DNA of 57,237 bases from a virus (Duplodnaviria; Caudoviricetes): positions 1 through 57,237 of IMG/VR virus record IMGVR_UViG_3300021964_000077. The stretch is one strand, 5' to 3'. Within the stretch, counting starts at the first letter, position 1. Each line of letters begins with the position of its first letter. The position numbers and the translations under genes are program-made. The notes under the pieces were generated by a model. The model saw only the letters and a program-made list of their open reading frames with translations. It ran no database searches and was not told the origin of the DNA. Below, piece by piece: positions 16,772 through 30,814 of this stretch.

Positions 16772-17230
16772 ATGGGATTTAGAATACACAGAGGAGTCTT
16801 TCAATTTTTGGATACAGGTAACAATACCTACAAAGGTAGATACAGGTTTAACGCAACCGGTAAACTGGTGGAGGTAAACGATAGCGATGATCGTGTAGCT
16901 GATGTCAGTGATACTACTCCTTTATCCGTAAGTAAGAATGGATCAAATGTATTTGTATTAGATTTAAATTCTCGAGCAAACTTTATACTAAGTGCTGCCG
17001 GTACATGGACTTTAAGCTTAACTGTAGGATCTGAAAACGTAGGTCAAACAGGAACCATTATTATAAACAATACAGCAGCCACCACACCAGGAGCTTTGCC
17101 ATCTAATGTTAAAACTCCTAATGGAGATTCAATATCTTGGCAAACAGATAATGGAGATGTTTCTATTTTATCTTATTTAGTAGTAGACACGTCAACAGTT
17201 TTAGTTAATTATATAGGGAACTTCGGTTAA
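16772..17230 (+). CDS. Small beta-rich fibre-tip/adaptor-like protein
   Basis: LDLNSRANF..., VGQTGTIII..., DVSILSY pattern seen in fibre-end domains; sits between the collagen fibre and the giant repeat protein. Confidence 0.5.
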   Translation: MGFRIHRGVFQFLDTGNNTYKGRYRFNATGKLVEVNDSDDRVADVSDTTPLSVSKNGSNVFVLDLNSRANFILSAAGTWTLSLTVGSENVGQTGTIIINNTAATTPGALPSNVKTPNGDSISWQTDNGDVSILSYLVVDTSTVLVNYIGNFG

Positions 17231-17238
17231 AAAATACC

Positions 17239-20200
17239 ATGAAGAGCATAGGTTTCTGGGACATATACGAATGGAACACATCCGCGAACACGAGTACTAC
17301 ACGTAATACTTCCCGTAGCACGTCTAGCAGTACTACTACCGTATGGAATACTGCCAAATCAACTACAACAACTTGGAATACCTCTCAATCAACAACTACA
17401 AACTGGAATACAACAGTTAGTACAAGTAAGAGTACTACCACAACCTGGAACACATCACAGAGTACTACCACAACCTGGAACACTACTCAAAACACAACTA
17501 CTACATTTAATACCAGTAGGTTGACAAGTAAATCTACTACGACCACGTGGAATACTACACAAAGTACAATAACAACCTGGAATACCACTAAAAGTACAAC
17601 CACAACATTTAATACTTCAGTATCAACTAGTAGAAACACCACCACAACCTGGAACACTACCAGGAGTACTACTACAACCTGGAATACTAGTCAAAGTACT
17701 ACAACAACTTTTATAACAAGTCAAAACACCACCAGGAGTACCACAACAACTTGGAGTACTTCTAAAAGCACTACAACTACATTTGCTACTAGTAGAAGTA
17801 CCACTACAACATTTAACACTAATACCAGTACCACTACAACATTTAACACTACTTGGAGTACATCAAAAAGTACAACAACAACATTTAACACCACCAGGTC
17901 AACCACTACTAGCTGGAATACAACTCAGAGTACTACAACTTCGTGGACAACATATTGGAACACTACAAGATCAACAGTGACTACTTGGAACACTACAAGA
18001 TCAACGGTGACTACATTCAACACGACCGCAAGTACAACAACAACATTTAATACAACCTGGAATACTACTAGAAGTACCACTACAACGTTTAATACGACTA
18101 GATCAACTACAACTACGTTTATAACAAGTCAAAGTACGACAACAACTTTTAATACAACTTGGAACACAAGTAAAAGTACTACTACTAGTTGGAATACGAC
18201 AAAGAGTACTACAACAACCTGGACAACTAGTCAAGGTACTTCTCACAGTACTACAACTACATTCAATACTACTAGAAGTACAACAACAGTCTACAATACG
18301 ACTAAGAGTACTACCACGACATTCAACACTAATGCAAGTACGACAACTACTTGGCTATCTTATTGGAATACTACTAAGAGTACAGTTAGTAGCTGGACAA
18401 CATCTACGAATACAACTACAACGTTTAATACTACATGGTCCACTTCTAGAAGCACAACTACTACTTGGACAACGAATACTACAGTAAGTACTACTAGAGC
18501 AACTACTACTAGTTGGAATACTACTAGAAGTACTACAACAACATTCAATACCTCTAAAAGTACAACAACAGTCTACCTAACTTCGAAGTCAACAGCGACT
18601 ACTTATGTAAGTTACTGGAATACTACTAGAAGTACAACAACAACATTCAATACTACAAGAAGTACGACAACGACTTGGGTAACAAACACTACAGCAAACA
18701 CTACTAGAAATACAACCACTAGTTGGAATACCACTAAAAGTACAACCACAACCTGGAACACATCACAGAGTACTACCACAACCTGGGTAACAACGTGGGA
18801 CACAACAACAGTTTACATAAGTTACTGGAACACAAGCCGTAATACGACTACATCGTTCAATACTACTTGGAATACTAGCTGGAATACGACAACCACCTGG
18901 GTAACAAACACTACAGTAAGTACATCACGAGCTACTACTACGACTTGGAATACCACTCAAAGCACAGTTACTACCTGGGCTACTTCTCGAACTACAACCA
19001 CAACTTGGACTTCGTATTGGAACACCTCTAGAGCAACTACAACTACGTTTAACACTACTAGGAACACCTCTACAACGTGGACTACATACTATAACACTAC
19101 CAGGAGTACTACAACAACATACAACACTGCCCAGAATACAACAACAACATGGGTTTCGTATTGGAATACTGGTAGGAGCACAACAACAACATTTAACACC
19201 ACAGTATCAACAAGTAGGTCAACTACTACTACATTTAGTACATCTATAGGAACAACTACTACGTGGTACACTAACTTAGGTCTCAATACAAGTAAGAATA
19301 CGACAACAACTTGGAATACTACAAGATCTACATCAACAAGTAGATCTACATCTAAGTCAACTGTCACAACGTGGATTACCTATAAAAATACAACTACTAC
19401 ATTTAATACAACCTGGAGTACTAGTAAGAGTACTACAACAACTTGGGTAACAACCTGGTCAACAACCTATACTGTCTCTACAGCAAACGCAACGACTACC
19501 TCATGGACAACGTATTTCAACACAACTAAAAGTACTACAACGACTTTTGGAACTACATGGAATACTACAAGATCTACATCTACTTCTAGAAGTACAACAA
19601 CAACATTTAACACTACATTTAACACTACTAAGTCAACCGTGACCACCTGGACAACAGGAGTATCAGACCCAGGATGTGATTGTTTCCAATTCTTTGTAGA
19701 TGCTTCTCCTTCAGGGACAGTAGAGTATTTTGATTGTGGCTCAGGAACAACAGTAACCGCAGATGTTCCTCGTGGGGGACTAATGATCTGTGCCTGCCCA
19801 AACTATGAAATTATTGGTCCTGAAGTAATTGAGGGTCCTCTGGAACCTTGTGGATCCATCCCACCGTCCGATACTACCTTTAATACTACCAGGAGTACAA
19901 CAACAACATATAACACTTCTAGAAGTACTAGCAAGAGTACAACAACAACGTTTAATACTACAACAACCTGGAATACTACTAGGAACACCACTAAAAGTAC
20001 TACCACAACCTTCCAAACATCAGCTTCTACACAGATAGAGACTACTACAACATGGAATAGTTACTGGAATGTGAACACAACCAGGGAAACATCTCAAAGT
20101 ACGACTACAGTATACAATACAACTGTTAGTACAAGTAGATCTACGAACACTGGCTTCAACACTACTCGAAACACCACTACTACATTTAATACGTCCTGGA

Positions 20201-22290
20201 ATACTACTACAACGTGGAACACATCACAAAGTACAACAACAACGTATATTAGTTCATGGAACACTACCAGGAGTACTACAACCGCATGGAACACCTCTAA
20301 AGCAACAACTACAACATTTAATACTACATGGTCCACTTCTAAAAGCACAAGTACTATTTGGACAACGAATACAACTGCAAGTACTATTAGATCAACTACA
20401 ACTACCTGGAACACTACAAAAAGTACAACAACAACCTGGGAGACAAGTATAAACACCGGTAGGAGTACTACTACAACCTGGGCGACTACCCAGAGTACAA
20501 CTACAACTTGGGTAACTAATACAACTGCAACTACTTCTAGAAGCACAACAACTACCTGGAACACTACAAGAAGTACAACAACTACCTGGAACACTACAAG
20601 AAGTACAACCACCACCTGGACTTCATACTGGAATACTACTAGAAGTACAACAGAAAATAGGAATACTACGAGAGGTACAGGTAGATCAACCACCACCACC
20701 TGGATAACTAACACAACAGGAAGTACTCAGAAAATTACAAGTACAACTAGAAGTACTAATAGAAATACAACAACTACCTGGAACACTTCAAAAAGTACAA
20801 CAACTACATTTGTTACTTCAAAGACTACAGCTACAACATGGATTTCATATTGGAACACTACAAAAAGTACAACAACAACATTTAATACTACTAGAAGTAC
20901 CACTACAACGTTTTCAACTTCAGCGGTAACAAGTACTGTACGTAATACTACGACGACTTGGAACACTTCTCATGCAACTACAACTACATGGAACACTTCA
21001 AAAAGTACAACGACTACCTGGATTACTAGTCAGAGTACAACTACAACATGGACTTCATACTGGAATACTAGTAGGAGTACTACTACAAGCTGGAACACTT
21101 CACAGAGCACTTCACGTTCAACGGTAACTTCCTATATAGTAAATACTTCAACAACAACAACGTGGGTAACTAGCGGAGTAGCTAATACTACTAAGAGTAC
21201 AACAACAACCTGGAACACCAGTAAAAGTACGACGACGACTTGGAACACTTCTCATGCAACTACAACTACATGGAACACTACTAAGTCAACTACAACTTCC
21301 TATACCACGTATTGGAACACTTCAAAAAGCACAACAACTACTTGGATTACCAGTCAAAGTACTACTACAACGTTTAACACAACAGTTAGCACCAGCAGAG
21401 CTACAACAACAAATTGGAATACCAGTAAAAGTACTACTACAACATTTGCAACTACTAAGAGTACTACTACAACTTTTGCTACAACAGTAAGTACTAGTAG
21501 AGCTACTACAACTACGTGGAACACTACTAAGAATACAACAACTACTTGGAACACTACACAAAATACGACTACTACATGGACTACTAGTCAAGGTACTACT
21601 AGGAGCACCACTACCACATGGAGTACTAGTCAAAGTACAACTACTACATTTAATACGAGTCAATCTACTACAACAACGTTTAATACGACTATTAGTACAG
21701 ATAGATCTACTACCACAACTTGGGCTACAAGTAAATCAACAACTACCACGTTTAACACAACGAAATCAACGACTACTACATTTAATACGAATGCAAGTAC
21801 AACAACTACCTGGAGCACATCCTGGAACACTACTAGAGCTACAACAACTACCTGGAGCACTACTAGAGCTACAACAACTACCTGGAGCACTAACACAAGC
21901 ACCACAACTACATTTAATACAACATGGTCTACCAGTAAATTAACTACGACTACGTTTAACACTACGTACAGTACAGTAACAACCTGGAACACTACCCAGA
22001 GTACTACTACATCCTTTACAACAACCTTTAATACAACTAAGGTAACGGTTACAACCTGGAACACTACTAGAAGTACCGCCACGTACTGGAATACTACCCA
22101 GAGTACTACTACAACATTTAATACCACTTGGGTTACTTCAAGATCAACTACTACAAGTTGGAACACTACCAGAAGTACAACAACAACATTCCAGACTCAG
22201 ACAATCACCCTTACAACCTGGACTACTAGCTGGGTTACTTCTTGGAGCACAGGAACAACATGGTACACAGACTTTTACTATACTCCGTAA
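17239..22290 (+). CDS. Giant Thr/Ser/Asn/Trp repeat protein (1683 aa): two ~805-aa repeat arms around a 72-aa Cys-rich loop; predicted self-complementary beta-hairpin filament
   Basis: Uninterrupted 5 kb ORF with diversified codons. 10-aa unit (W/F/Y)NTT(K/R/Q)STTTT; central non-repeat segment 19657-19872 with six Cys. The ORF is well supported; the structure is inferred. Confidence 0.85.
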   Translation: MKSIGFWDIYEWNTSANTSTTRNTSRSTSSSTTTVWNTAKSTTTTWNTSQSTTTNWNTTVSTSKSTTTTWNTSQSTTTTWNTTQNTTTTFNTSRLTSKSTTTTWNTTQSTITTWNTTKSTTTTFNTSVSTSRNTTTTWNTTRSTTTTWNTSQSTTTTFITSQNTTRSTTTTWSTSKSTTTTFATSRSTTTTFNTNTSTTTTFNTTWSTSKSTTTTFNTTRSTTTSWNTTQSTTTSWTTYWNTTRSTVTTWNTTRSTVTTFNTTASTTTTFNTTWNTTRSTTTTFNTTRSTTTTFITSQSTTTTFNTTWNTSKSTTTSWNTTKSTTTTWTTSQGTSHSTTTTFNTTRSTTTVYNTTKSTTTTFNTNASTTTTWLSYWNTTKSTVSSWTTSTNTTTTFNTTWSTSRSTTTTWTTNTTVSTTRATTTSWNTTRSTTTTFNTSKSTTTVYLTSKSTATTYVSYWNTTRSTTTTFNTTRSTTTTWVTNTTANTTRNTTTSWNTTKSTTTTWNTSQSTTTTWVTTWDTTTVYISYWNTSRNTTTSFNTTWNTSWNTTTTWVTNTTVSTSRATTTTWNTTQSTVTTWATSRTTTTTWTSYWNTSRATTTTFNTTRNTSTTWTTYYNTTRSTTTTYNTAQNTTTTWVSYWNTGRSTTTTFNTTVSTSRSTTTTFSTSIGTTTTWYTNLGLNTSKNTTTTWNTTRSTSTSRSTSKSTVTTWITYKNTTTTFNTTWSTSKSTTTTWVTTWSTTYTVSTANATTTSWTTYFNTTKSTTTTFGTTWNTTRSTSTSRSTTTTFNTTFNTTKSTVTTWTTGVSDPGCDCFQFFVDASPSGTVEYFDCGSGTTVTADVPRGGLMICACPNYEIIGPEVIEGPLEPCGSIPPSDTTFNTTRSTTTTYNTSRSTSKSTTTTFNTTTTWNTTRNTTKSTTTTFQTSASTQIETTTTWNSYWNVNTTRETSQSTTTVYNTTVSTSRSTNTGFNTTRNTTTTFNTSWNTTTTWNTSQSTTTTYISSWNTTRSTTTAWNTSKATTTTFNTTWSTSKSTSTIWTTNTTASTIRSTTTTWNTTKSTTTTWETSINTGRSTTTTWATTQSTTTTWVTNTTATTSRSTTTTWNTTRSTTTTWNTTRSTTTTWTSYWNTTRSTTENRNTTRGTGRSTTTTWITNTTGSTQKITSTTRSTNRNTTTTWNTSKSTTTTFVTSKTTATTWISYWNTTKSTTTTFNTTRSTTTTFSTSAVTSTVRNTTTTWNTSHATTTTWNTSKSTTTTWITSQSTTTTWTSYWNTSRSTTTSWNTSQSTSRSTVTSYIVNTSTTTTWVTSGVANTTKSTTTTWNTSKSTTTTWNTSHATTTTWNTTKSTTTSYTTYWNTSKSTTTTWITSQSTTTTFNTTVSTSRATTTNWNTSKSTTTTFATTKSTTTTFATTVSTSRATTTTWNTTKNTTTTWNTTQNTTTTWTTSQGTTRSTTTTWSTSQSTTTTFNTSQSTTTTFNTTISTDRSTTTTWATSKSTTTTFNTTKSTTTTFNTNASTTTTWSTSWNTTRATTTTWSTTRATTTTWSTNTSTTTTFNTTWSTSKLTTTTFNTTYSTVTTWNTTQSTTTSFTTTFNTTKVTVTTWNTTRSTATYWNTTQSTTTTFNTTWVTSRSTTTSWNTTRSTTTTFQTQTITLTTWTTSWVTSWSTGTTWYTDFYYTP

Positions 22291-22367: not shown

Positions 22368-23264
22368 ATGGAGATGTTCAACAAGAACGTGGCTAAAGAA
22401 CGCATTGGTCACTTAAAGAAAAGTAAAGCGTTAGATCCTCTAAGAGACGTAGAGAGGTATTTCTTAAAACAAATCAGGAAGTACAATATTGAGACAAGCT
22501 ATGATGTTCTTGCTCAAGAAATTCCGTACTTTAAAACAATGGCATACACAGAATTTGCTACATGTTTTATGATGCATCCTCTTAACCTAGATTTAAGGTT
22601 AACTCAAATAATGGAAGCAGCACAAGACGATGACTCTGAAGAAAAAGATTTTGTAAGTTATTTCCGTTCAAATATCGAAGGTAAGTTAGCAAATAAATAT
22701 CAAGATAGAGCAACAGATTTTAACGATTTTCACGAAGTAGACAACATTGTAGTACTTCCAGGATCTAATAAATTAAAATCAAACACCTGCTTGAATAAGT
22801 TACATTACATTAAAAAGACTCATGATGATAATGTATATTTTAAACCTCACCCAATCACAACACACCAGGTCATTGGAGAACTGAAAGATATGTTCGGCGA
22901 AGATTCAATTCTACCACGCGATATCGATATGTACCATTTCTTACAACAAGCTGATAAAGTTTACGGTACACACATTACAGAGTCTACAATTTATGCTGCA
23001 TCTCTAGGGAAGGAAATTGAACCAGTTGATGTATATAATGGAATCGAACGAGGATCATTCTATCATGTTAATAAATTCTTATTTGAGAATAGAGATAATC
23101 CTCAACCGTGGATTAATAAGACTCTATCTAGCCATAAATCGGGTATTATCTGTCCTCAAATAGAAGAAGATTGGAGAGAGAAGTTAGACGCTTACCTAGA
23201 GTACATGTACGAAAAAAGAGAGACGTACAAGAATTGGTTTATTGAAGGTAAAAAGAAGAAATAA
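22368..23264 (+). CDS. Putative CMP-sugar-dependent glycosyltransferase (KpsS/KpsC capsule-biosynthesis-like, possible Kdo transferase)
   Basis: VYFKPHP (HP motif of CMP-Kdo/CMP-sialic acid transferases), then FLQQADKVY...TESTIYAASLGK (GT-B C-terminal pattern); same operon as kdsB and kdsA. Confidence 0.55.
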   Translation: MEMFNKNVAKERIGHLKKSKALDPLRDVERYFLKQIRKYNIETSYDVLAQEIPYFKTMAYTEFATCFMMHPLNLDLRLTQIMEAAQDDDSEEKDFVSYFRSNIEGKLANKYQDRATDFNDFHEVDNIVVLPGSNKLKSNTCLNKLHYIKKTHDDNVYFKPHPITTHQVIGELKDMFGEDSILPRDIDMYHFLQQADKVYGTHITESTIYAASLGKEIEPVDVYNGIERGSFYHVNKFLFENRDNPQPWINKTLSSHKSGIICPQIEEDWREKLDAYLEYMYEKRETYKNWFIEGKKKK

Positions 23265-23267
23265 GTT

Positions 23268-23615
23268 ATGCATATACAAGGAAAAGTCTGGGGACAAACA
23301 CAAGCAATCTTCCAGAAACCTAATTTTGAAATCCACCGCATTGAGATCAAAAAAGGCGGATTTTGTTCTACTCATAAACATAATAATAAGTTTAACGCTT
23401 TTTACATGGAGAGTGGAAGCCTTAAGATTTTTATTGAGCAACAGGACTACGATTTAATAGATGAGACAGTAATCACTACCGGAGAACTATCGATAGTAAA
23501 ACCAGGATTGTACCATTCATTTGAAGCATTAACAGACTGTGTTTGTTATGAAATTTATTGGACTGAACTAAACCATAATGATATCGAACGTCGTACCGTC
23601 GGCGGTTCTAAGTAA
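23268..23615 (+). CDS. Cupin-fold protein (sugar isomerase-like)
   Basis: KVWG, CSTHKH and VKPGLYHSF cupin metal-binding motifs. Confidence 0.75.
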   Translation: MHIQGKVWGQTQAIFQKPNFEIHRIEIKKGGFCSTHKHNNKFNAFYMESGSLKIFIEQQDYDLIDETVITTGELSIVKPGLYHSFEALTDCVCYEIYWTELNHNDIERRTVGGSK

Positions 23616-24145
23616 TGTATACAAAAGGCAGTACTCACGATTACTTTATTGAGCAATACAAGCAGCTTCATGAAGGAGGGTATACTCAAGGTTACCGCAT
23701 AAGTCCCACTTACGGAACTAGAGATACGTTGAAAGTTCTTTTAGAAAAGTACAACTGTAAATCTTTGTTTGATTTTGGATGTGCTTCAGCAGCACACTGG
23801 ATTGAGACAGACCTACAGGAATACCTGGGAATAGGAGAACTATACTTATACGATCCAGCTATTGAAAAGTACAACACCTATCCAGCTGAACAATTTGACG
23901 CATCCTTTTGTATAGATGTAATGGAACATATACCTGAAGACAGTATAGATTATATTGTGAATAGGGTTTTAGATAGAACAAAAAAACTAGCAATCTTTAG
24001 AATTGCAATATGTGAAGCATCCACTTTACTACCGGATGGTCAAAATGCTCACGTTACTGTGCAGAACTCACAGTGGTGGAGAGAGCGTATTGCTCAACAT
24101 AAGAGAGATGGTATCGCAATTGAAGTTAATAGAGTAATAGTATAA
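23615..24145 (+). CDS. Class I SAM-dependent methyltransferase
   Basis: SLFDFGC (motif I), YDPA, FD...CIDVMEHIP, NAHVTV...WW. Confidence 0.8.
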   Translation: MYTKGSTHDYFIEQYKQLHEGGYTQGYRISPTYGTRDTLKVLLEKYNCKSLFDFGCASAAHWIETDLQEYLGIGELYLYDPAIEKYNTYPAEQFDASFCIDVMEHIPEDSIDYIVNRVLDRTKKLAIFRIAICEASTLLPDGQNAHVTVQNSQWWRERIAQHKRDGIAIEVNRVIV

Positions 24146-24712
24146 ATGGAAATAGTAGAATTAGAACACTCATCACCTTCTTTTATTTTAGCAGGAGTTA
24201 TTAATCACGATCTATGTGATGAAATCATAGCAGAGATAGATAGTAATTCTGAAAAAGCTAGGTACGACAAAGTAAGAGGTTACCATAGGTTAACCGATAA
24301 GGAAGTTAATCAGGATTTAATGAAAAAGTATTTACGGGAACTTAATCGAGTTTTCGAAAAATACAAAAAAGAGTTTCCCTGGGTTGAAGATCGCGGATCA
24401 AACTGGGGTGTTATGTCTCCTTTTAATTTACAGAGGTACGACCCAGGAGACTGTTACCGACCTGTACACATTGAACAAGGCGGTCCCAGAGAAGGTAAGT
24501 TAATTAGGAACTTAGCTTTTGTTACGTATCTTAATGATATTGAAGACGGTGGTGAAACAGAATTCCCTCAACAGAATATGATGATAAAACCTCAAAAAGG
24601 GTTAACAACGATATTCCCAGCAGGATGGACTCACCCTCACCGAGGCTACCCCGCAGTAAGTGAAGATAAGTACATTGTAACAGGTTGGGCTAGTTATTTC
24701 CATCGTTGCTAA
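24146..24712 (+). CDS. 2OG-Fe(II) oxygenase (prolyl-4-hydroxylase-like superfamily)
   Basis: LQRY, HIE, YLNDIEDGGETEF, FPAGWTHPHRG, KYIVTGW. Confidence 0.9.
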   Translation: MEIVELEHSSPSFILAGVINHDLCDEIIAEIDSNSEKARYDKVRGYHRLTDKEVNQDLMKKYLRELNRVFEKYKKEFPWVEDRGSNWGVMSPFNLQRYDPGDCYRPVHIEQGGPREGKLIRNLAFVTYLNDIEDGGETEFPQQNMMIKPQKGLTTIFPAGWTHPHRGYPAVSEDKYIVTGWASYFHRC

Positions 24713-25413
24713 TGAAAGTAGTTGCGTTAATCCCTGCACGTTTACGTTCTACTAGATTACCGCGAAAACTTATTCAAAGCATTGGCGGTAAGAGTATCAT
24801 ACAGAGAACTTACGAAGCGGTAGAATCTACAGGTTTATTTGATTTAGTATTTGTAGTTACTGGAGATGAAGAGATTATAAAGAAGACTCAAGCTCCTGTC
24901 ATTAAGAGTACTACACATTACCTTTCCGGCAGTGATAGGATCGCCGCAGCAATCAAGAGTATATCTTGTGATGCCGTTATCAACGTTCAAGGTGATGAGC
25001 CATTTATTGATAGCACTTTGTTAGAAAGGCTTAGAGATGCGATAATTACAACTAAAGCGGATGTAGTATCTGCAGCTTTTCCTATTGAGAATGTTGATGA
25101 AATCAATAATCCAAATAACGTAAAGGTTTATTTTAATGAAGAAGGATTAGCTGAAAATTTCTCTAGAACCCCAATGACTGCTTCTAAGCATTATCAGCAT
25201 ATCGGTGTATACGCTTTTAAGAGATCAGCATTAGAGAGGTTTGGTAAACTAGAACCCAGTATGAGGGAAAAACAAGAGAAATTAGAAAACCTAAGATTCT
25301 TGGAAAACGGGATGAAAGTTCGTATATTGTTAACAAATGAACCAAGTATCGGAATCGATACTCAAGAAGACTTAGATAAAGCAAGAAAGTTATGGAGCTC
25401 TATGAACAGTTAA
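24712..25413 (+). CDS. kdsB: 3-deoxy-manno-octulosonate cytidylyltransferase (CMP-Kdo synthetase)
   Basis: IPARLRSTRLPRK, SGSDRI, INVQGDEP, NPNNVKV, FSR, HIGVYAF, EKLENLRFLENG, GIDTQEDL. Confidence 0.93.
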   Translation: MKVVALIPARLRSTRLPRKLIQSIGGKSIIQRTYEAVESTGLFDLVFVVTGDEEIIKKTQAPVIKSTTHYLSGSDRIAAAIKSISCDAVINVQGDEPFIDSTLLERLRDAIITTKADVVSAAFPIENVDEINNPNNVKVYFNEEGLAENFSRTPMTASKHYQHIGVYAFKRSALERFGKLEPSMREKQEKLENLRFLENGMKVRILLTNEPSIGIDTQEDLDKARKLWSSMNS

Positions 25414-26198
25414 CATCTCAAGATCGACTATTTTTAATCGCAGGACCTTGTGCTGTAGAAGATGAGAAGATGCCTCTACAAATAGCCAGGGATATTTCTG
25501 AGATTACTAAAAAGTTAAATATACCTTATGTTTTCAAAGCAAGTTATAAGAAAGCTAACCGCTCTCGATTAGACTCGTTTACAGGCATTGGAGATAAAAA
25601 AGCATTAAAAGCAATACATAAGGTAAAATCAGAATTAGGTATACCTGTAATTACAGATGTACACAGTGTAGATGAAGTTAAATTAGCAGCTAAATATGTA
25701 GATGTACTACAGATACCAGCTTTCTTAGCTCGGCAAACAGAGTTACTAATAGCAGCTGGTGAAACAGGTAAAATTGTTTCTATTAAGAAGGGACAGTTTA
25801 TGTCTCCTGAATCTATGCAATTTGCTGTTGAGAAAGTTAGATCTACAGGAAACCATAGAGTACTTATCACTGAACGAGGGACGATGTTTGGGTACGGAGA
25901 TCTAGTAGTTGATTACAGAGGTATTCCAATTATGCAGCAATATGCTCCAACAGTACTGGACATTACACATTCTCTTCAGCAACCTAACAACTCTTCAGGA
26001 GTAACCGGTGGACTTCCTCAATTAATCGAAACTATTGCTAAAGCCGGTATTGCAGTTGGAGTAGACGGTATCTTCTTAGAGACTCACCCTGACCCATCGA
26101 GAGCACTATCAGATGGTGCTAATATGTTACCGTTAGGAGAATTAGAAGACTTATTAACAAAGTTAGTTAAGCTTTATAACTTATCTAATATGTTATAA
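25392..26198 (+). CDS. kdsA: Kdo-8-phosphate synthase
   Basis: LIAGPCAVE, FKASYKKANRS, TDVH, QIPAFLARQT, KKGQF, TERGTMFGY, DITHSLQQP, FLETHPDP, SDG. Confidence 0.96.
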   Translation: MELYEQLTSQDRLFLIAGPCAVEDEKMPLQIARDISEITKKLNIPYVFKASYKKANRSRLDSFTGIGDKKALKAIHKVKSELGIPVITDVHSVDEVKLAAKYVDVLQIPAFLARQTELLIAAGETGKIVSIKKGQFMSPESMQFAVEKVRSTGNHRVLITERGTMFGYGDLVVDYRGIPIMQQYAPTVLDITHSLQQPNNSSGVTGGLPQLIETIAKAGIAVGVDGIFLETHPDPSRALSDGANMLPLGELEDLLTKLVKLYNLSNML

Positions 26199-27503: not shown

Positions 27504-27616
27504 TACTAATAGAAGATTTACAGAATAATCTATATATCGTTATGCAAGACGGTATAGATGTTGCATTATTTAACAGCAGAGAAGAAGCACAAAACTTTAT
27601 AGATAATGCCAACTAG
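27500..27616 (+). CDS. Small hypothetical protein (38 aa, not in the ORF track)
   Basis: MILIEDLQNNLYIVMQDGIDVALFNSREEAQNFIDNAN; ATGA overlap with the upstream stop; fills the gap. Confidence 0.5.
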   Translation: MILIEDLQNNLYIVMQDGIDVALFNSREEAQNFIDNAN

Positions 27617-28868
27617 TGTAGGACCAAATACAAAAGGAGAAGAGAATCTAGTCTTTGGCTATGATTTATCGGATAACTATAACTCGTATATAGGAGAACC
27701 TGCTACGAATTCTCAAGCTTATAGCCATTCTGCTATGACTCAAGCAGGGTTTGATGCCTGGGGATGTTACGATGGTAATAACAGCTCCCCTGCTTACCAC
27801 TCCTGGGGTAACGCACAATCTAAAACTCTAGTCAGTATAACAGGTCCTAACGGTAAATATGTTAACGCAATGTTATACCATAATTTTACTGGAGGCTTTC
27901 ACGGACCTACAAACTGGAGTGGAGTAGCTGCTTCTTTGTTAACTAATGGTAGTAAGATAACTGTGCAAGGATGGGTAAAAGCAGCAGACGCAGCAAGTGT
28001 TGGAAAAACAGTAACACCGTATTTGTATTATAGTAAAGTTGGAGGAGGGTCTTATAGCACCGGTACTGGTTATACACTAACAGCAAACTGGCAGCTAGTC
28101 TCACATTCCTACACGGTACCTGAAGGCTCTACAGGAACAGGTACAATGTACTTTTTTACAAGCGGTGGTACAGATATTAAAATGTATTTAACAAATACAG
28201 CGATTGTAGGAGGAAAGCTCCATGCTGTACAATGGCTTCCAGGAGGAACAACAAGATCAGCCACCCAAGGCTTACTAGATCTCACAGGCAATTCAACAAT
28301 CGATCTATCAAACGTATCATTTGACAGTAATGCACAAATGACTTTTGATGGTACGAGTGACTATGCAACAATTCCACATAACACAGTAATGCGAGATACA
28401 GAAACACTTGCCATAGAGACTGTATTTCAAGTATACTCCCAGTTTGGATATTATGGAGGAATTATAGGAAAAGGTACAAGTGATACAGATGAAGAATATT
28501 TCTTAGGAATACAACCTAGCGGTAATAGGATTTATTTTGATGTAGGTATAGGAAGCGGACCTTACGTAAATGCTGTACAAACTATCAACTCTAATCAATA
28601 CTACCATGTAGTAGCAATGCATCAGAGAATAGGAAGTACATCAGTATGCTCTATTTACGTTAACGGAGAATTTGCATCTAACACAACATCAGGCGCAACA
28701 AATAGTGTCAATACTAATACAACTGATATCACAGTAGGAGCTAGGTGGAGTAATGGAAGTAGCTCTTTCAACGGAGCTATACCTCTATTGAAGATGTATA
28801 ACAGAATACTATCAGCCGAAGAGATCAAATCAAACTTTAACGCCATCAAAGGCAGATTCGGGATTTAA
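27606..28868 (+). CDS. LamG/concanavalin A-like lectin protein with an inserted carbohydrate-binding-like domain
   Basis: FDGTSDY, YYHVV, IYVNG and FNGAI..LKMYNRILSAEEIKSNFNA LamG signature. Confidence 0.8.
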   Translation: MPTSVGPNTKGEENLVFGYDLSDNYNSYIGEPATNSQAYSHSAMTQAGFDAWGCYDGNNSSPAYHSWGNAQSKTLVSITGPNGKYVNAMLYHNFTGGFHGPTNWSGVAASLLTNGSKITVQGWVKAADAASVGKTVTPYLYYSKVGGGSYSTGTGYTLTANWQLVSHSYTVPEGSTGTGTMYFFTSGGTDIKMYLTNTAIVGGKLHAVQWLPGGTTRSATQGLLDLTGNSTIDLSNVSFDSNAQMTFDGTSDYATIPHNTVMRDTETLAIETVFQVYSQFGYYGGIIGKGTSDTDEEYFLGIQPSGNRIYFDVGIGSGPYVNAVQTINSNQYYHVVAMHQRIGSTSVCSIYVNGEFASNTTSGATNSVNTNTTDITVGARWSNGSSSFNGAIPLLKMYNRILSAEEIKSNFNAIKGRFGI

Positions 28869-28879
28869 CATTTATAGTT

Positions 28880-29623
28880 ATGTCATTACACCATAATCCT
28901 AGAATAACCACAAACGGGCTTATAACTGCCTTAGATGCTGCAGATCCAAATTCATACCCAGGATCCGGAACTACATGGTACGATATGTCAGGTAATGGCA
29001 ATCACGGCTATATCTCAAGCGGAGAGTTTGTAGCTGGGGACAAATACCTAAGGAATTTAAACAATACCTCAAATTTCTTCACTGTAACTGTAAATCATTC
29101 TTCTGTAATTAACGATGCTTTTACTACAATTACCGGTGGATGGACAATAGAAGAAGTTATCTGGACTAACTCAACCACATACCCAGAAGCAGACGGAGGC
29201 TCAGTAGTAAGTAGTAACGCATATAGTTCTGGTCAAACTGGTTTTGACTGGAATCACGGACAAGGATCTTTATCTAGCTTTCAGTTTGGTATGAGCAGTA
29301 ACTCAGGCGGTTCTTATGAAGATCGTGTTTACATTTCTACCGGTAACTATAATTCATTAAATACCTGGAGAGTAAGAACAATGATATGGGATAGAGGAGC
29401 AGACCAGGTAAAGCTCCATATGAATGGAGAGTACATGGGAGCACAGAGTATACCCAATACATCTGGAACTTCTATCTATGATGGAGGTGGAATACTTTTT
29501 GGAAGCCTGTACGGATGGAAGCATTACGGAAGACGTGCAAGTATAAAAATATACAACAGAGTATTAACAGCCAAAGAGGTCAAATCAAACTTTAACGCCA
29601 TCAAAGGCAGATTTAATATTTAG
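28880..29623 (+). CDS. LamG/concanavalin A-like lectin protein
   Basis: GLITALDAADPNSYPGSGTTWYDMSGNGNHG start; KIYNRVLTAKEVKSNFNA end. Confidence 0.8.
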   Translation: MSLHHNPRITTNGLITALDAADPNSYPGSGTTWYDMSGNGNHGYISSGEFVAGDKYLRNLNNTSNFFTVTVNHSSVINDAFTTITGGWTIEEVIWTNSTTYPEADGGSVVSSNAYSSGQTGFDWNHGQGSLSSFQFGMSSNSGGSYEDRVYISTGNYNSLNTWRVRTMIWDRGADQVKLHMNGEYMGAQSIPNTSGTSIYDGGGILFGSLYGWKHYGRRASIKIYNRVLTAKEVKSNFNAIKGRFNI

Positions 29624-29629
29624 TAAGTT

Positions 29630-30814
29630 ATGGCAGTAAGACACGGATACGGAAAGATAGCAGGTGCTGATGCATTAGTATTTGCATACGATACTGGAGA
29701 TACTAGAAATAGTTATAGGGGTGAGCCTACTGAGAATCTAGTATACACTAACTCAAATGTTTATACATTAGGTGCGTCTACTTTTCCTATTGATCCACCA
29801 GTCAAAGAAGTTTTCAACGGCAGTACTCAAGCTAATTTAAGTTGGACAGATCACTTAAGATGGTATAACGAAACAATTCCTTCTGGAACTACAATTACTA
29901 TTTCCGGGTGGTACATGGTCTACCATATAAATCCTACTACAGCATGGCAAAGTAGCGCTAGATTAATTATATATTCTTCTGCAGGATATGGAGGTACAGT
30001 ATGTAATCCTGGAGCTTGGAATACTTGGAAATATTTTGAAGTAACTTATACTGTACCCTCTGACACAACTAGTTTTAGACTAGAAGATGCTGGGTATGAC
30101 TATTATAATGACGCAGATAAAACCAATACAACAGCTTATGGATGTAATTATCAGCTTGAACTAAAGTCTCACGCTACTCAATTTGTAAACGGAACAAGAT
30201 CAGCCACAGAAGGATTAAAAGATTTGACAGGAAATACTTCTGTTGATTTATCTAACGTATCATTTGATTCTGATGCAATAATGACTTTCGACGGTACAGA
30301 TGATTATATGAGCATTGCATCCTCTAATACTATTACAGATTACTCACAACCTTTTACAATGGAAACCATCTTTAAGGTAGACACAAATGCTACCTGGGAT
30401 AACGGGTACAGAAGTAATATATTTAGTATAGCAGGCTCGTATGGAGGAATGTACGGTTTATTTAAGTACAACAACACAGATGTGGGTATTCAGTTGAGAG
30501 ATGGAGATAGCACAACCTACGCAGTAGCTACAAACCTATCCAAAGGAGGATATTACCATTTAGTAGGAACTAGTAACGGATTAGGTACAGTCTCTTTATA
30601 TTTAAATGGAGTATTAACACAAGACAACGTAGGAACATTAACAGGCGCTCCTGACTCTCAAGGCCTATTCATAGGAGGATCTAGGGCGTTTGGTGGAGCT
30701 TACGGTAATCACTATCAAGGAGAAATACCAGTAGCTAAATATTACAACAGAGCACTCACAGCCGCAGAAGTGAAAAACAATTTTAACAATTATAAATCAA
30801 GATTTAACTTATAA
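29630..30814 (+). CDS. LamG/concanavalin A-like lectin protein, paralogue of 27606-28868
   Basis: TRSATEGLKDLTGN...SNVSFDS...FDGTDDY; YYNRALTAAEVKNNFN. Confidence 0.8.
   Translation: MAVRHGYGKIAGADALVFAYDTGDTRNSYRGEPTENLVYTNSNVYTLGASTFPIDPPVKEVFNGSTQANLSWTDHLRWYNETIPSGTTITISGWYMVYHINPTTAWQSSARLIIYSSAGYGGTVCNPGAWNTWKYFEVTYTVPSDTTSFRLEDAGYDYYNDADKTNTTAYGCNYQLELKSHATQFVNGTRSATEGLKDLTGNTSVDLSNVSFDSDAIMTFDGTDDYMSIASSNTITDYSQPFTMETIFKVDTNATWDNGYRSNIFSIAGSYGGMYGLFKYNNTDVGIQLRDGDSTTYAVATNLSKGGYYHLVGTSNGLGTVSLYLNGVLTQDNVGTLTGAPDSQGLFIGGSRAFGGAYGNHYQGEIPVAKYYNRALTAAEVKNNFNNYKSRFNL

Follow-up and report, generated by a model that had tools for sequence, protein, structure and literature searches.

A threonine-rich gene and its two arms

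We analysed a 57,237-nucleotide stretch of viral DNA (Duplodnaviria; Caudoviricetes), IMG/VR record IMGVR_UViG_3300021964_000077, referred to here as the window; the completeness of this 57-kb viral record is estimated at 35%, and nearly all of its long open reading frames (ORFs) lie on the plus strand. The plus-strand ORF at 17239-22290 encodes a threonine-rich protein of 1683 amino acids (aa), which a first-pass annotation had divided into an N-terminal arm (N-arm) of 806 residues, a loop of 72 and a C-terminal arm (C-arm) of 805; these coordinates and this division were right when the ORF and its translation were rechecked. By comparing the protein with itself, and the sequences of related genes with one another, we show that two segments, in one chain or in two, are under selection to pair with each other antiparallel, in a single register and with particular partner residues.

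The composition of the protein is dominated by a few residues (T 789, S 240, N 142, W 106, R 63, F 54, K 41, Y 35 and Q 30, with 3 His and 24 Gly in the whole chain), and Thr makes up 47% of the arms. The basic unit is the 10-mer [WFY]NT[TS][KRQ]STTTT, present in 47 copies in the N-arm and 43 in the C-arm, and unit variants of 14, 16 and 20 residues are scattered among the 10-mers in both arms. In the outer parts of the arms (17239-18300 and 21200-22287), as in the protein of the related locus L002, the units follow a 34-residue super-repeat of 10+10+14 residues, a mean of 11.3 per unit, in which occasional breaks (10,10,10,14 or 10,14) are each mirrored in the opposite arm. Pfam searches with the protein returned 0 families at E ≤ 1, with no match to Collagen, and the sole NCBIfam return was ser_rich_anae_1 at 23.7 bits against a cut-off of 650; the loop had no Pfam match, Hint and intein families included. 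Minus-strand open frames of 92-206 codons were seen inside the gene at 19089-19367, 20094-20714, 21322-21663 and 21660-22166; they are most likely a by-product of its ACN-rich codon composition and not genes.

Table 1. Positions in the window of the threonine-rich gene, its parts and the genes flanking it
Feature	Position	Strand	Description
Collagen-like tail-fibre protein, 1393 aa	12578..16759	+	Pfam Collagen E 5.6e-61; PHROG tail-fibre families, best 1.2e-90
152-aa protein	16772..17230	+	C-terminal domain of ~100 aa ending ..VLVNYIGNFG
N-arm	17239..19656	+	Residues 1-806; Thr ladder with aromatic and K/R/Q marks
Loop	19657..19872	+	Residues 807-878; 72-aa non-repeat, 6 Cys; presumed distal tip
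C-arm	19873..22290	+	Residues 879-1683 and stop codon; antiparallel complement of N-arm
298-aa partner gene	22368..23264	+	Motifs LPGSNK, FKPHPITT, HxSE; directly downstream of Thr-rich gene(s) in relatives

The first-pass annotation had proposed that the two arms are complementary when one of them is read backwards. We aligned the N-arm globally to the reversed C-arm using three residue classes and affine gaps, and obtained a score of 313; when the order of the units was shuffled in both arms the score was 136.0 ± 11.9 with a maximum of 169.6, and none of 200 shuffles reached 313 (z = 14.9). Each arm aligned to its own reverse gave 176 (N-arm) and 161 (C-arm), parallel alignment of the arms gave 36, and reversal of the unit order in one arm gave 146 or 159. 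Of 60 cyclic rotations of the C-arm units, one reached 305; moving a single end unit would lower the score of a global alignment only slightly. Among the 188 alignment columns that contain an aromatic residue, 164 place it opposite a residue other than T, S or N, 23 opposite T, S, N or a gap, and 1 opposite another aromatic, with 14 and 15 gap positions in the two arms, mostly in 2-residue gaps. Residue i pairs with approximately residue 1688-i (0-based sum 1687-1689) over roughly 800 positions. A unit-by-unit table placed 10-mers opposite 10-mers, 14-mers with a V/A/I insert opposite double-aromatic 14-mers (at least 9 cases), [WY]xSYW 14-mers opposite W[VT]TNTT.. 16-mers by way of a 2-aa bulge (at least 6 cases), and a triple-basic 20-mer opposite a triple-aromatic 20-mer. 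The middle of each arm, which had been left unpaired earlier, matched as well, and the compensation of irregularities noted near the ends and the loop, inserts facing double aromatics and bulges facing [WY]xSYW units, was borne out by the same table. The idea that the arms are zipped by aromatic-cation pairs stood in part: K and R of the arms faced W, F or Y in 102 of 103 cases, and Y:H, W:Q and aromatic:V/A/I pairs occur as well.

Note that a plain 10-mer, with its aromatic at position 0 and K/R at position 4, is self-complementary when reversed, and that an ungapped scan of the window protein gave, besides the best register with 110 aromatic:non-T/S/N pairs, rivals with 97, 93 and 86 at 24-68 residues off. 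The test must therefore lean on the irregular units, and in the ungapped scan the register is locally unique only near the loop. The symmetry does not lie in the DNA, as had been stated before: there is no long inverted repeat, only scattered imperfect matches of 14-29 nucleotides, and both arms are rich in A (40%) and C (25%) on the sense strand, which excluded a DNA inverted repeat as its source.

Relatives with one arm gene or two

Direct searches for homologues of the 1683-aa protein failed. A tblastn comparison with 50,697 phage records, run under low-complexity filtering, found none; a word-index search gave 6 weak matches with 0 orthologues among them, and pointed to a gp7-like family; viral contigs scanned for the pattern of the entire protein or of the loop yielded nothing; the loop with its flanks had 2 matches among 1.84 billion representatives, both repeat proteins judged spurious; and an Atlas search gave one lead (0.79), under the Atlas's own trust level. 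Composition filters are the probable cause of these failures. The T4-like Flavobacterium phage vB_FspM_immuto matched the window in its capsid gene alone (80% nucleotide identity) and has no comparable gene annotated within 125000-160410. Relatives were reachable only by way of the two flanking genes. The domain of the upstream 152-aa protein is present in 24 viral contigs, in 19 of which an ORF with more than 30% Thr follows directly; of the other five, one contig ends there, one has a moderately Thr-rich ORF (locus L005), and three are distant and have no Thr-rich ORF. A metagenome scan with the 298-aa gene gave 413 confirmed loci, of which 80 were fetched as our sample; a Thr-rich ORF lies upstream of the gene in 73 of these, and at least four of the remaining seven have fewer than 900 bases of upstream sequence. 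The 298-aa gene was also found by local tblastn downstream of Thr-rich ORFs in 24 fetched loci.

The viral contigs contained complete single-ORF relatives of 1704, 862, 843, 762, 637 and 624 codons, stop to stop, and all six showed one outstanding ungapped register centred in the middle of the protein (Table 2). The centre fell on a non-repeat segment in five of the six; in L021 it lay within repeat-like sequence. The arms varied from about 300 to 820 residues while staying equal to each other. The L002 orthologue of the window protein, of 1701 aa (819, 71 and 811 residues in arm, loop and arm), scored 266 in the gapped test against 102 ± 13 for shuffled units, a score reached by 0 of 100 shuffles. 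When arms were exchanged between the window protein and this orthologue, the swapped partners scored 193 and 160 as against 313 and 266 for each protein's own arms. Among the metagenome loci with one complete Thr-rich ORF, 2 of 13 passed the self test, and in these the centre lay at 0.50 of the protein length.

Table 2. Ungapped registers of one-gene and two-gene relatives, as aromatic:other / aromatic:aromatic / aromatic:TSN pairs
Locus	Comparison	Best register	Next-best register
L002	Single ORF	144/2/47	116/7/62
L017	Single ORF	76/3/19	48/5/25
L021	Single ORF	86/3/4	46/1/47
L014	Single ORF	69/1/12	48/3/31
L012	Single ORF	64/1/5	42/6/16
L011	Single ORF	56/2/15	43/0/33
L006	ORF1:ORF2	197/6/6 over 965 positions	115/30/40
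L008	ORF1:ORF2	192/5/3	
L010	ORF1:ORF2	78/2/20	
L023	ORF1:ORF2	83/1/17	
L025	ORF1:ORF2	136/3/51	
L026	ORF1:ORF2	107/0/27	18/3/16
L027	ORF1:ORF2	100/1/31	
L028	ORF1:ORF2	66/2/41	

Many loci carry two adjacent Thr-rich ORFs, neither of which has a register with itself, and which match each other in reverse. This split form, found at L006 (2057-5503 and 5563-8487), L007-L010, L023, L025-L028 and 30 metagenome loci (e.g. L047, L075 and L103), is that of the majority of relatives; the window protein, with its single chain, belongs to the minority. ORF1 matched the reversed ORF2 in nine of ten two-ORF viral loci. For the metagenome pairs the script carried fixed thresholds: 60% or more of the aromatic columns had to be satisfied, and the best register had to score at least 1.4 times the next best outside ±4; 28 of the 30 complete pairs passed, over paired lengths of 557-1311 residues, and in 29 of the 30 there was no self-register. 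ORF2, which often begins MPTT/MPNT or MA[LI]Y[TI]T, pairs over its entire length with the first S residues of ORF1, in the pattern i : (S-i), and ORF1 has an extra tip of 150-225 residues.

Comparison of L006 with L008 (82% identical) allowed changes in one arm gene to be set beside those in the other. ORF1 of L008 is without 24 residues at 647 and 10 at 779, and its ORF2 is without 10 residues at 170 and 24 at 275; reflected onto ORF2, the ORF1 gaps fall at 172-181 and 290-313, within the aligner slack that the repeats allow, and the indels are thus of equal sizes and in mirrored order in the two genes. Of the pairs themselves, 180 were kept, 1 was flipped on both chains (W:Q to R:W), 2 were lost on both chains and regained two residues off in flipped form, and 2 were broken on one side. 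These mirrored gaps in two genes are what compensation of indels in both arms, as looked for by the first-pass annotation, would give.

The partners are also specific. In 5887 ungapped pairs pooled from 11 relatives, the observed numbers (with expected numbers in parentheses) were 234 (19) for F:R, 139 (13) for F:K, 137 (8.4) for W:Q, 124 (18) for W:R, 111 (3.9) for Y:H and 425 (131) for N:S. His lay opposite Tyr in 17 of 17 cases in L006, 53 of 54 in L002, 23 of 23 in L012 and 24 of 24 in L014; Gln in L006 had as partner Trp 28 times, Phe 0 times and Tyr once, and in the window protein Trp 22 times and Phe twice; the partners of Phe are K and R. Within single proteins, chi-square tests of partner specificity gave p values from 1e-9 to 1e-33. 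When the L002 arms were shifted to other registers, among them ±34, at which the aromatic:polar pattern persisted, His had Trp and Tyr as partners in about equal numbers (24 against 23-24). Units in L002 are mixed (W..H and Y..R), and because of this a W..H unit must face a Y..R/K unit; the arms are complementary and not just alike. That the arms are antiparallel partners and that their irregular spacing works as a register code, as had been suggested from the window protein, is strongly supported by the equal arms of the complete single-chain relatives, the matching split genes, the mirrored indels, the moved and flipped pairs and the better score of each protein's own arms over those of its orthologue. 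We concluded that the complementarity first noticed in the window protein is confirmed, and that the interpretation then placed on it is partly supported.

Tip domains, neighbouring genes and a second family

The tips of ORF1 in split relatives are of several kinds. One is Hint- or intein-like, with a Cys block first and ..NGILTHN at its end (L006:4754-5503, designated P0010, and L023, L025 and L005); the motif NG[IVL]L[TVS][HY]N is present in 22 of 30 metagenome ORF1s, followed by a non-nucleophilic residue and a tail of 20-30 residues with 4-6 Cys. Hint_2 (positions 2-34) and Intein_splicing (positions 131-155) matched at 16.7-21.3 bits against cut-offs of 28-36. From these sequences standard protein splicing seems to be excluded; self-cleavage, or transfer of the C terminus of the arm to another group, is conceivable. 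Where an ORF1 has no Hint tip and its end is a Gly run with C[SG]RGCQ, a separate gene lies between the arm genes, in a gap of 0.6-1.1 kb at L094, L098, L100, L102, L103, L108 and L112. At L026:12515-13582 there is a methyltransferase-like N-terminal half joined to a Hint-like C-terminal half that is homologous to the ORF1 tips (tblastn E 1e-11 to 1e-13), and L027 and L028 have a NodS-like methyltransferase between the arm genes. Another kind of tip is Peptidase_S74, matched at the C terminus of ORF1 at L028:11531-12430 (24.7 bits, cut-off 22) and at L027:12065-12964 (14.6 bits), which hints at a trimeric assembly.

Upstream of the Thr-rich gene, the collagen-like protein of 1393 aa is presumed to be the shaft that carries the Thr-rich module, and the C-terminal domain of the 152-aa protein is presumed to be a docking or end domain. 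Elsewhere, the ..VLVNYIGNF domain is usually the C terminus of fibre proteins of 900-1350 aa that are collagen-like or rich in Ala/Ser/Thr. AlphaFold2 predicted an all-beta end domain from 10 sequences, with a pLDDT (predicted local distance difference test) of 87.7; a fold search of the PDB with this model had its best match, which was not significant, in a phage tailspike (E 0.019), and the 152-aa protein had no sequence match in Pfam, PHROG, NCBIfam or the PDB and none by tblastn in the phage records.

Downstream, the 298-aa protein is represented by 522 metagenome clusters, ocean included, all of them unnamed or 'hypothetical' except for one stray label. Its identity among relatives is 48-81%, far above that of the Thr-rich genes, with invariant LPGSNK, KPHP.T and H..E; PDB sequences, NCBIfam and Pfam returned nothing above threshold, and distant homologues are found in phages Cr30, KVP40, Lullwater and DLP6. 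Beyond it, at 23268-26198, lie genes for a cupin, a methyltransferase (PHROG), a 2OG-Fe(II) oxygenase, a cytidylyltransferase and a DAHP_synth_1 enzyme, the cytidylyltransferase (CTP_transf_3, E 5.6e-35) and the DAHP_synth_1 or Kdo-8-phosphate-synthase-type enzyme (E 1.5e-63) both 1.4-3 kb downstream. The cupin, methyltransferase and synthase recur beside the closest relatives, L002, L016 and L017, and the downstream enzymes may conceivably be linked to modification of the Thr-rich protein. Further along, three consecutive ORFs of 420, 247 and 394 aa within 27606-30814 gave, over their C-terminal parts, weak matches to the NCBIfam TafC fimbrial family (20.7-24.2 bits, cut-off 410) and look like paralogues with a common C-terminal domain.

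A second family has the same kind of segment in another protein. Wedge proteins in the gp7 position of T4-like baseplates, with a PF23786 N terminus (P0003-P0006 and L022:3001-6867), carry a C-terminal Thr-rich stretch of about 600 residues that has a central loop of its own and mirrors itself in an ungapped register, 56/0/3 in P0003 and 58/2/8 in Stenotrophomonas phage DLP6 (AAY80_265), in the notation of Table 2. DLP6 is the sole cultured phage found with a Thr-rich mirror segment, and the word 'threonine' has 0 occurrences in the accessible part of the DLP6 paper (PMC5349666). The 1098-aa protein P0002, from a 218-kb contig, has a globular N-terminal half, a Thr-rich stretch and then a tail rich in Leu/Val/Gln, and this tail looks like the Thr-rich repeat in another frame, reached through a frameshift in the gene or in the assembly.

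A possible fibre of paired strands

We consider it probable, with good confidence, that these genes encode an antiparallel beta duplex with a register code, which makes up the distal portion of the phage's tail fibre. The chain would run outward along the N-arm, turn in the 72-aa Cys-rich loop and return along the C-arm, the arms being most likely extended beta strands in which an aromatic at every fourth or sixth residue faces a specific polar or basic partner. Phe would pair with Lys/Arg, Trp with Arg/Lys/Gln, Tyr with His (in relatives), and the extra aromatics with Val/Ala/Ile, Thr:Thr pairs filling the rest; in a canonical unit W0:K4', N1:T3', T2:T2', T3:N1' and K4:W0' would make up a dyad-symmetric box, with S5..T9 against T9'..S5'. 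One register is far better than others because the order of units (10/14/16/20) is non-periodic and the partners are specific, and it would therefore act as a register code for the folding of a very long hairpin. In split relatives two polypeptides would pair in the same way, the first of them ending in a removable-looking tip (Hint-like or Peptidase_S74). The collagen-like fibre would bear both termini on its end domain and the Cys loop would be distal, probably a host-binding tip, with a hairpin about 265 nm long (806 x 0.33 nm) present once per fibre or as a bundle of three. We infer the beta geometry, the length of ~265 nm, the orientation and the oligomeric state from these patterns: aromatic-to-aromatic spacings are even in 75 of 97 cases in the N-arm and 74 of 90 in the C-arm, the odd ones being 3+1 pairs, the units of 10/14/16/20 residues and the bulges of 2 aa have the two-residue periodicity of a beta-ribbon, and Thr is the dominant residue of the arms.

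Several observations weigh against this reading or reduce its force. The residue classes and score matrix were picked after the sequence had been viewed; the alignment of the window arms requires about ten short gaps and leaves the 23 aromatic columns that face T, S, N or a gap; and in the ungapped scan of the window protein the rival registers at ±34 reached 80-90% of the best, because the outer halves of the arms are nearly periodic in the 34-residue super-repeat. Eleven of the 13 metagenome single complete ORFs showed no self-register; in 10 of these the partner gene may be cut off, because 1.4 kb of contig or less lies upstream, and the remaining one, L058, does have room upstream. The ORF pair of L005 was ambiguous; it fell below thresholds, as did the pairs of L061 and L100, whose top register was still where expected. 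The viral and metagenome counts are not fully independent because some contigs, to judge from equal lengths and equal numbers, are evidently common to both sets. A single-sequence AlphaFold2 model of residues 657-1028 had a pLDDT of 36, too low to be usable, and short meandering strands. Finally, the role in a fibre was drawn from the gene context, the S74 tip and the gp7-position family, and presence in the virion is a prediction.

A variant in which the pairing is the same and three hairpins (six strands) are bundled in each fibre, the register within a chain being one interface among several, is in our view a tentative possibility that deserves attention. Collagen repeats are trimeric, which would make the collagen-like upstream fibre so; Peptidase_S74, found at the tip of ORF1 in L028 and weakly in L027, is a trimerisation chaperone of phage fibres and spikes; to our knowledge all known phage fibres are trimers; and the regular 10,10,14 pattern over hundreds of residues would otherwise be without explanation. 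On the other hand, no second strong register was seen (in L026 the best has 107 aromatic:other pairs and the next best 18); neither of the strand's two faces, W/T/K/T/T and N/T/S/T/T, is hydrophobic; and most split relatives have the Hint-like tip (22/30) and not S74.

We regard as unlikely the proposal that the Thr-rich arms are mainly a scaffold for dense mucin-like O-glycosylation by a conserved sugar transferase encoded next to them, with the mirror pattern secondary. The 298-aa partner is always adjacent and has an HP-containing motif, one related Atlas cluster has Capsule_synth in 14% of its members, polysialyltransferase PF07388 matched one of 14 members of the 298-aa family at E 0.018, and the CTP_transf_3 and Kdo8P-synthase-type enzymes described above are nearby; but PF05159 and PF07388 had no match when searched against the window, a profile of the 298-aa family found nothing relevant among PDB sequences, and the distant homologues in Cr30 and KVP40 are not beside Thr-rich genes. 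Glycosylation would, moreover, leave the complementarity unexplained, and could at most add to it.

Pairing between molecules, as head-to-tail antiparallel dimers of ~550 nm or a domain-swapped network with the Cys domain paired to itself, we hold to be quite improbable. An antiparallel homodimer would be equally expected to give the i : (S-i) pattern, and the split relatives indicate that pairing between chains works; against this, the centre of symmetry is mid-protein in all six single-ORF relatives and in five of them coincides with a compact loop free of repeats, such as a turn needs; in split forms ORF1 carries its extra tip where it meets the N terminus of ORF2, as in a hairpin that has been opened; and closure within a chain should be kinetically favoured. 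That tandem repetition or the scoring produced the mirror pattern, without physical pairing, has in its favour the 10-mer marks at 0 and 4 that survive reversal and the near-equal registers of the super-repeat, and we give it practically no credence in view of the shuffles, the self-reverse controls, the orthologue swap, the mirrored indels in two genes and the His:Tyr and Gln:Trp specificity seen in one register; a periodicity artefact was ruled out by the unit shuffles, the swap and the loss of specificity at shifted registers.

Returning to the register-coded duplex, we lean, with somewhat less assurance, towards a fuller statement of it: a residue-level pairing alphabet (Y:H, W:Q, W:R/K, F:K/R, aliphatic fillers and a 2-residue bulge) would set a unique antiparallel register over 300-1300 residues in hairpin or duplex, giving a 'protein double strand' of natural origin and able to evolve, ~1-2 nm thick and hundreds of nm in length, that serves abundant aquatic phages as a far-reaching tail filament, its tip in the split form being processed or locked by the Hint-type domain, perhaps together with the 298-aa protein or the methyltransferase. 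The comparative evidence appears to us as strong as that for RNA helices, whose hallmarks (compensating indels, flipped pairs, bulges, and hairpin and duplex forms) are present here; the structure itself is a prediction. If true, it would constitute an undescribed protein principle, in which two extended strands recognise each other by a sparse code of side-chain pairs, and would offer designers natural orthogonal cross-strand pairs and register control of very long beta structures. The end domain, one or two Thr-rich arm genes and the 298-aa partner make up a widespread unannotated fibre module; its filaments could be 100-430 nm long, a reach that matters for the finding of hosts by phages in dilute water. 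Low-complexity filters and composition-biased scoring hide this large protein family from routine searches.

The design appears to be new. Full-text literature, with subscription journals and supplements outside the scope, gave no description of such a protein, and the view of the first-pass annotation that no appendage of this design had been described agrees with the literature, Pfam, PHROGs (against which no scan of the 1683-aa protein itself was made), NCBIfam, PDB sequences and the 50,697 phage records. In function and topology the nearest comparison is with the gp37 needle of T4, whose chain, in the 2010 work of Bartual et al., reportedly runs to the tip and folds back, so that both ends are proximal and the receptor-binding tip is mid-sequence. 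The Thr-rich protein would resemble it as a distal part of a myophage tail fibre with extended antiparallel strands, and has the counterpart of such a fold-back, at the sequence level, in a unique antiparallel register centred on the loop. Unlike the Thr-rich protein, the needle has a couple of hundred residues, is trimeric and has His-Fe sites (seven iron atoms held by His, according to PMC6957217); the Thr ladder and the aromatic:polar alphabet are absent from gp37, and the Thr-rich arms have 300-1300 residues and can be in two genes. No Pfam or NCBIfam family indicated similarity to gp37, and the His-x-His iron sites were not found in the window protein with its 3 His. Tentaclins were set aside as having a different architecture, to judge from a portion of their description (PMC10743442).

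Other long or Thr-rich systems share single features with the arms; the protein is a member of none of them, nor of the gp37 type. Nearest in logic are the SMC and Rad50 proteins and nucleic-acid hairpins. Like SMC, Rad50 and MukB, the protein would fold back at its centre and pair its halves antiparallel over hundreds of residues. Those proteins have antiparallel coiled-coil arms with a central hinge or hook (Cys-containing in Rad50) and matching interruptions in both arms; their arms are alpha-helical, with heptads and a hydrophobic seam, whereas the Thr-rich arms have periods of 2/10/34, are beta-prone and carry aromatic:polar pairs, and there is no homology. Designed and natural beta-hairpins such as tryptophan zippers and Lys/Arg-Trp hairpins, the nearest systems in chemistry, are of 12-20 residues, with cross-strand aromatic pairs and a preference for Thr-rich strands; the aromatic:Lys/Arg pairs on one face would be alike, here in series of up to ~200 and with several partner types. 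Ice-binding and antifreeze beta-solenoids, with TxT arrays, high Thr and coils stacked in parallel, are like the arms in their Thr-rich short repeats, but a solenoid has no need of mirror symmetry and explains no complementarity of two halves or two genes. Collagen-like fibres differ from the protein, which has no Gly-X-Y signature and contains few Gly; the collagen-like gene lies upstream. By analogy, nucleic-acid stem-loops also show antiparallel complementarity, compensating changes, bulges, hairpin and duplex forms and several pair types, unlike which the arms have their letters every 4-6 residues on a Thr background, no templating and an unrelated chemistry. As a speculation, the 34-residue super-repeat may hold the aromatic boxes in step with strand twist, in the manner of stutters in coiled coils.

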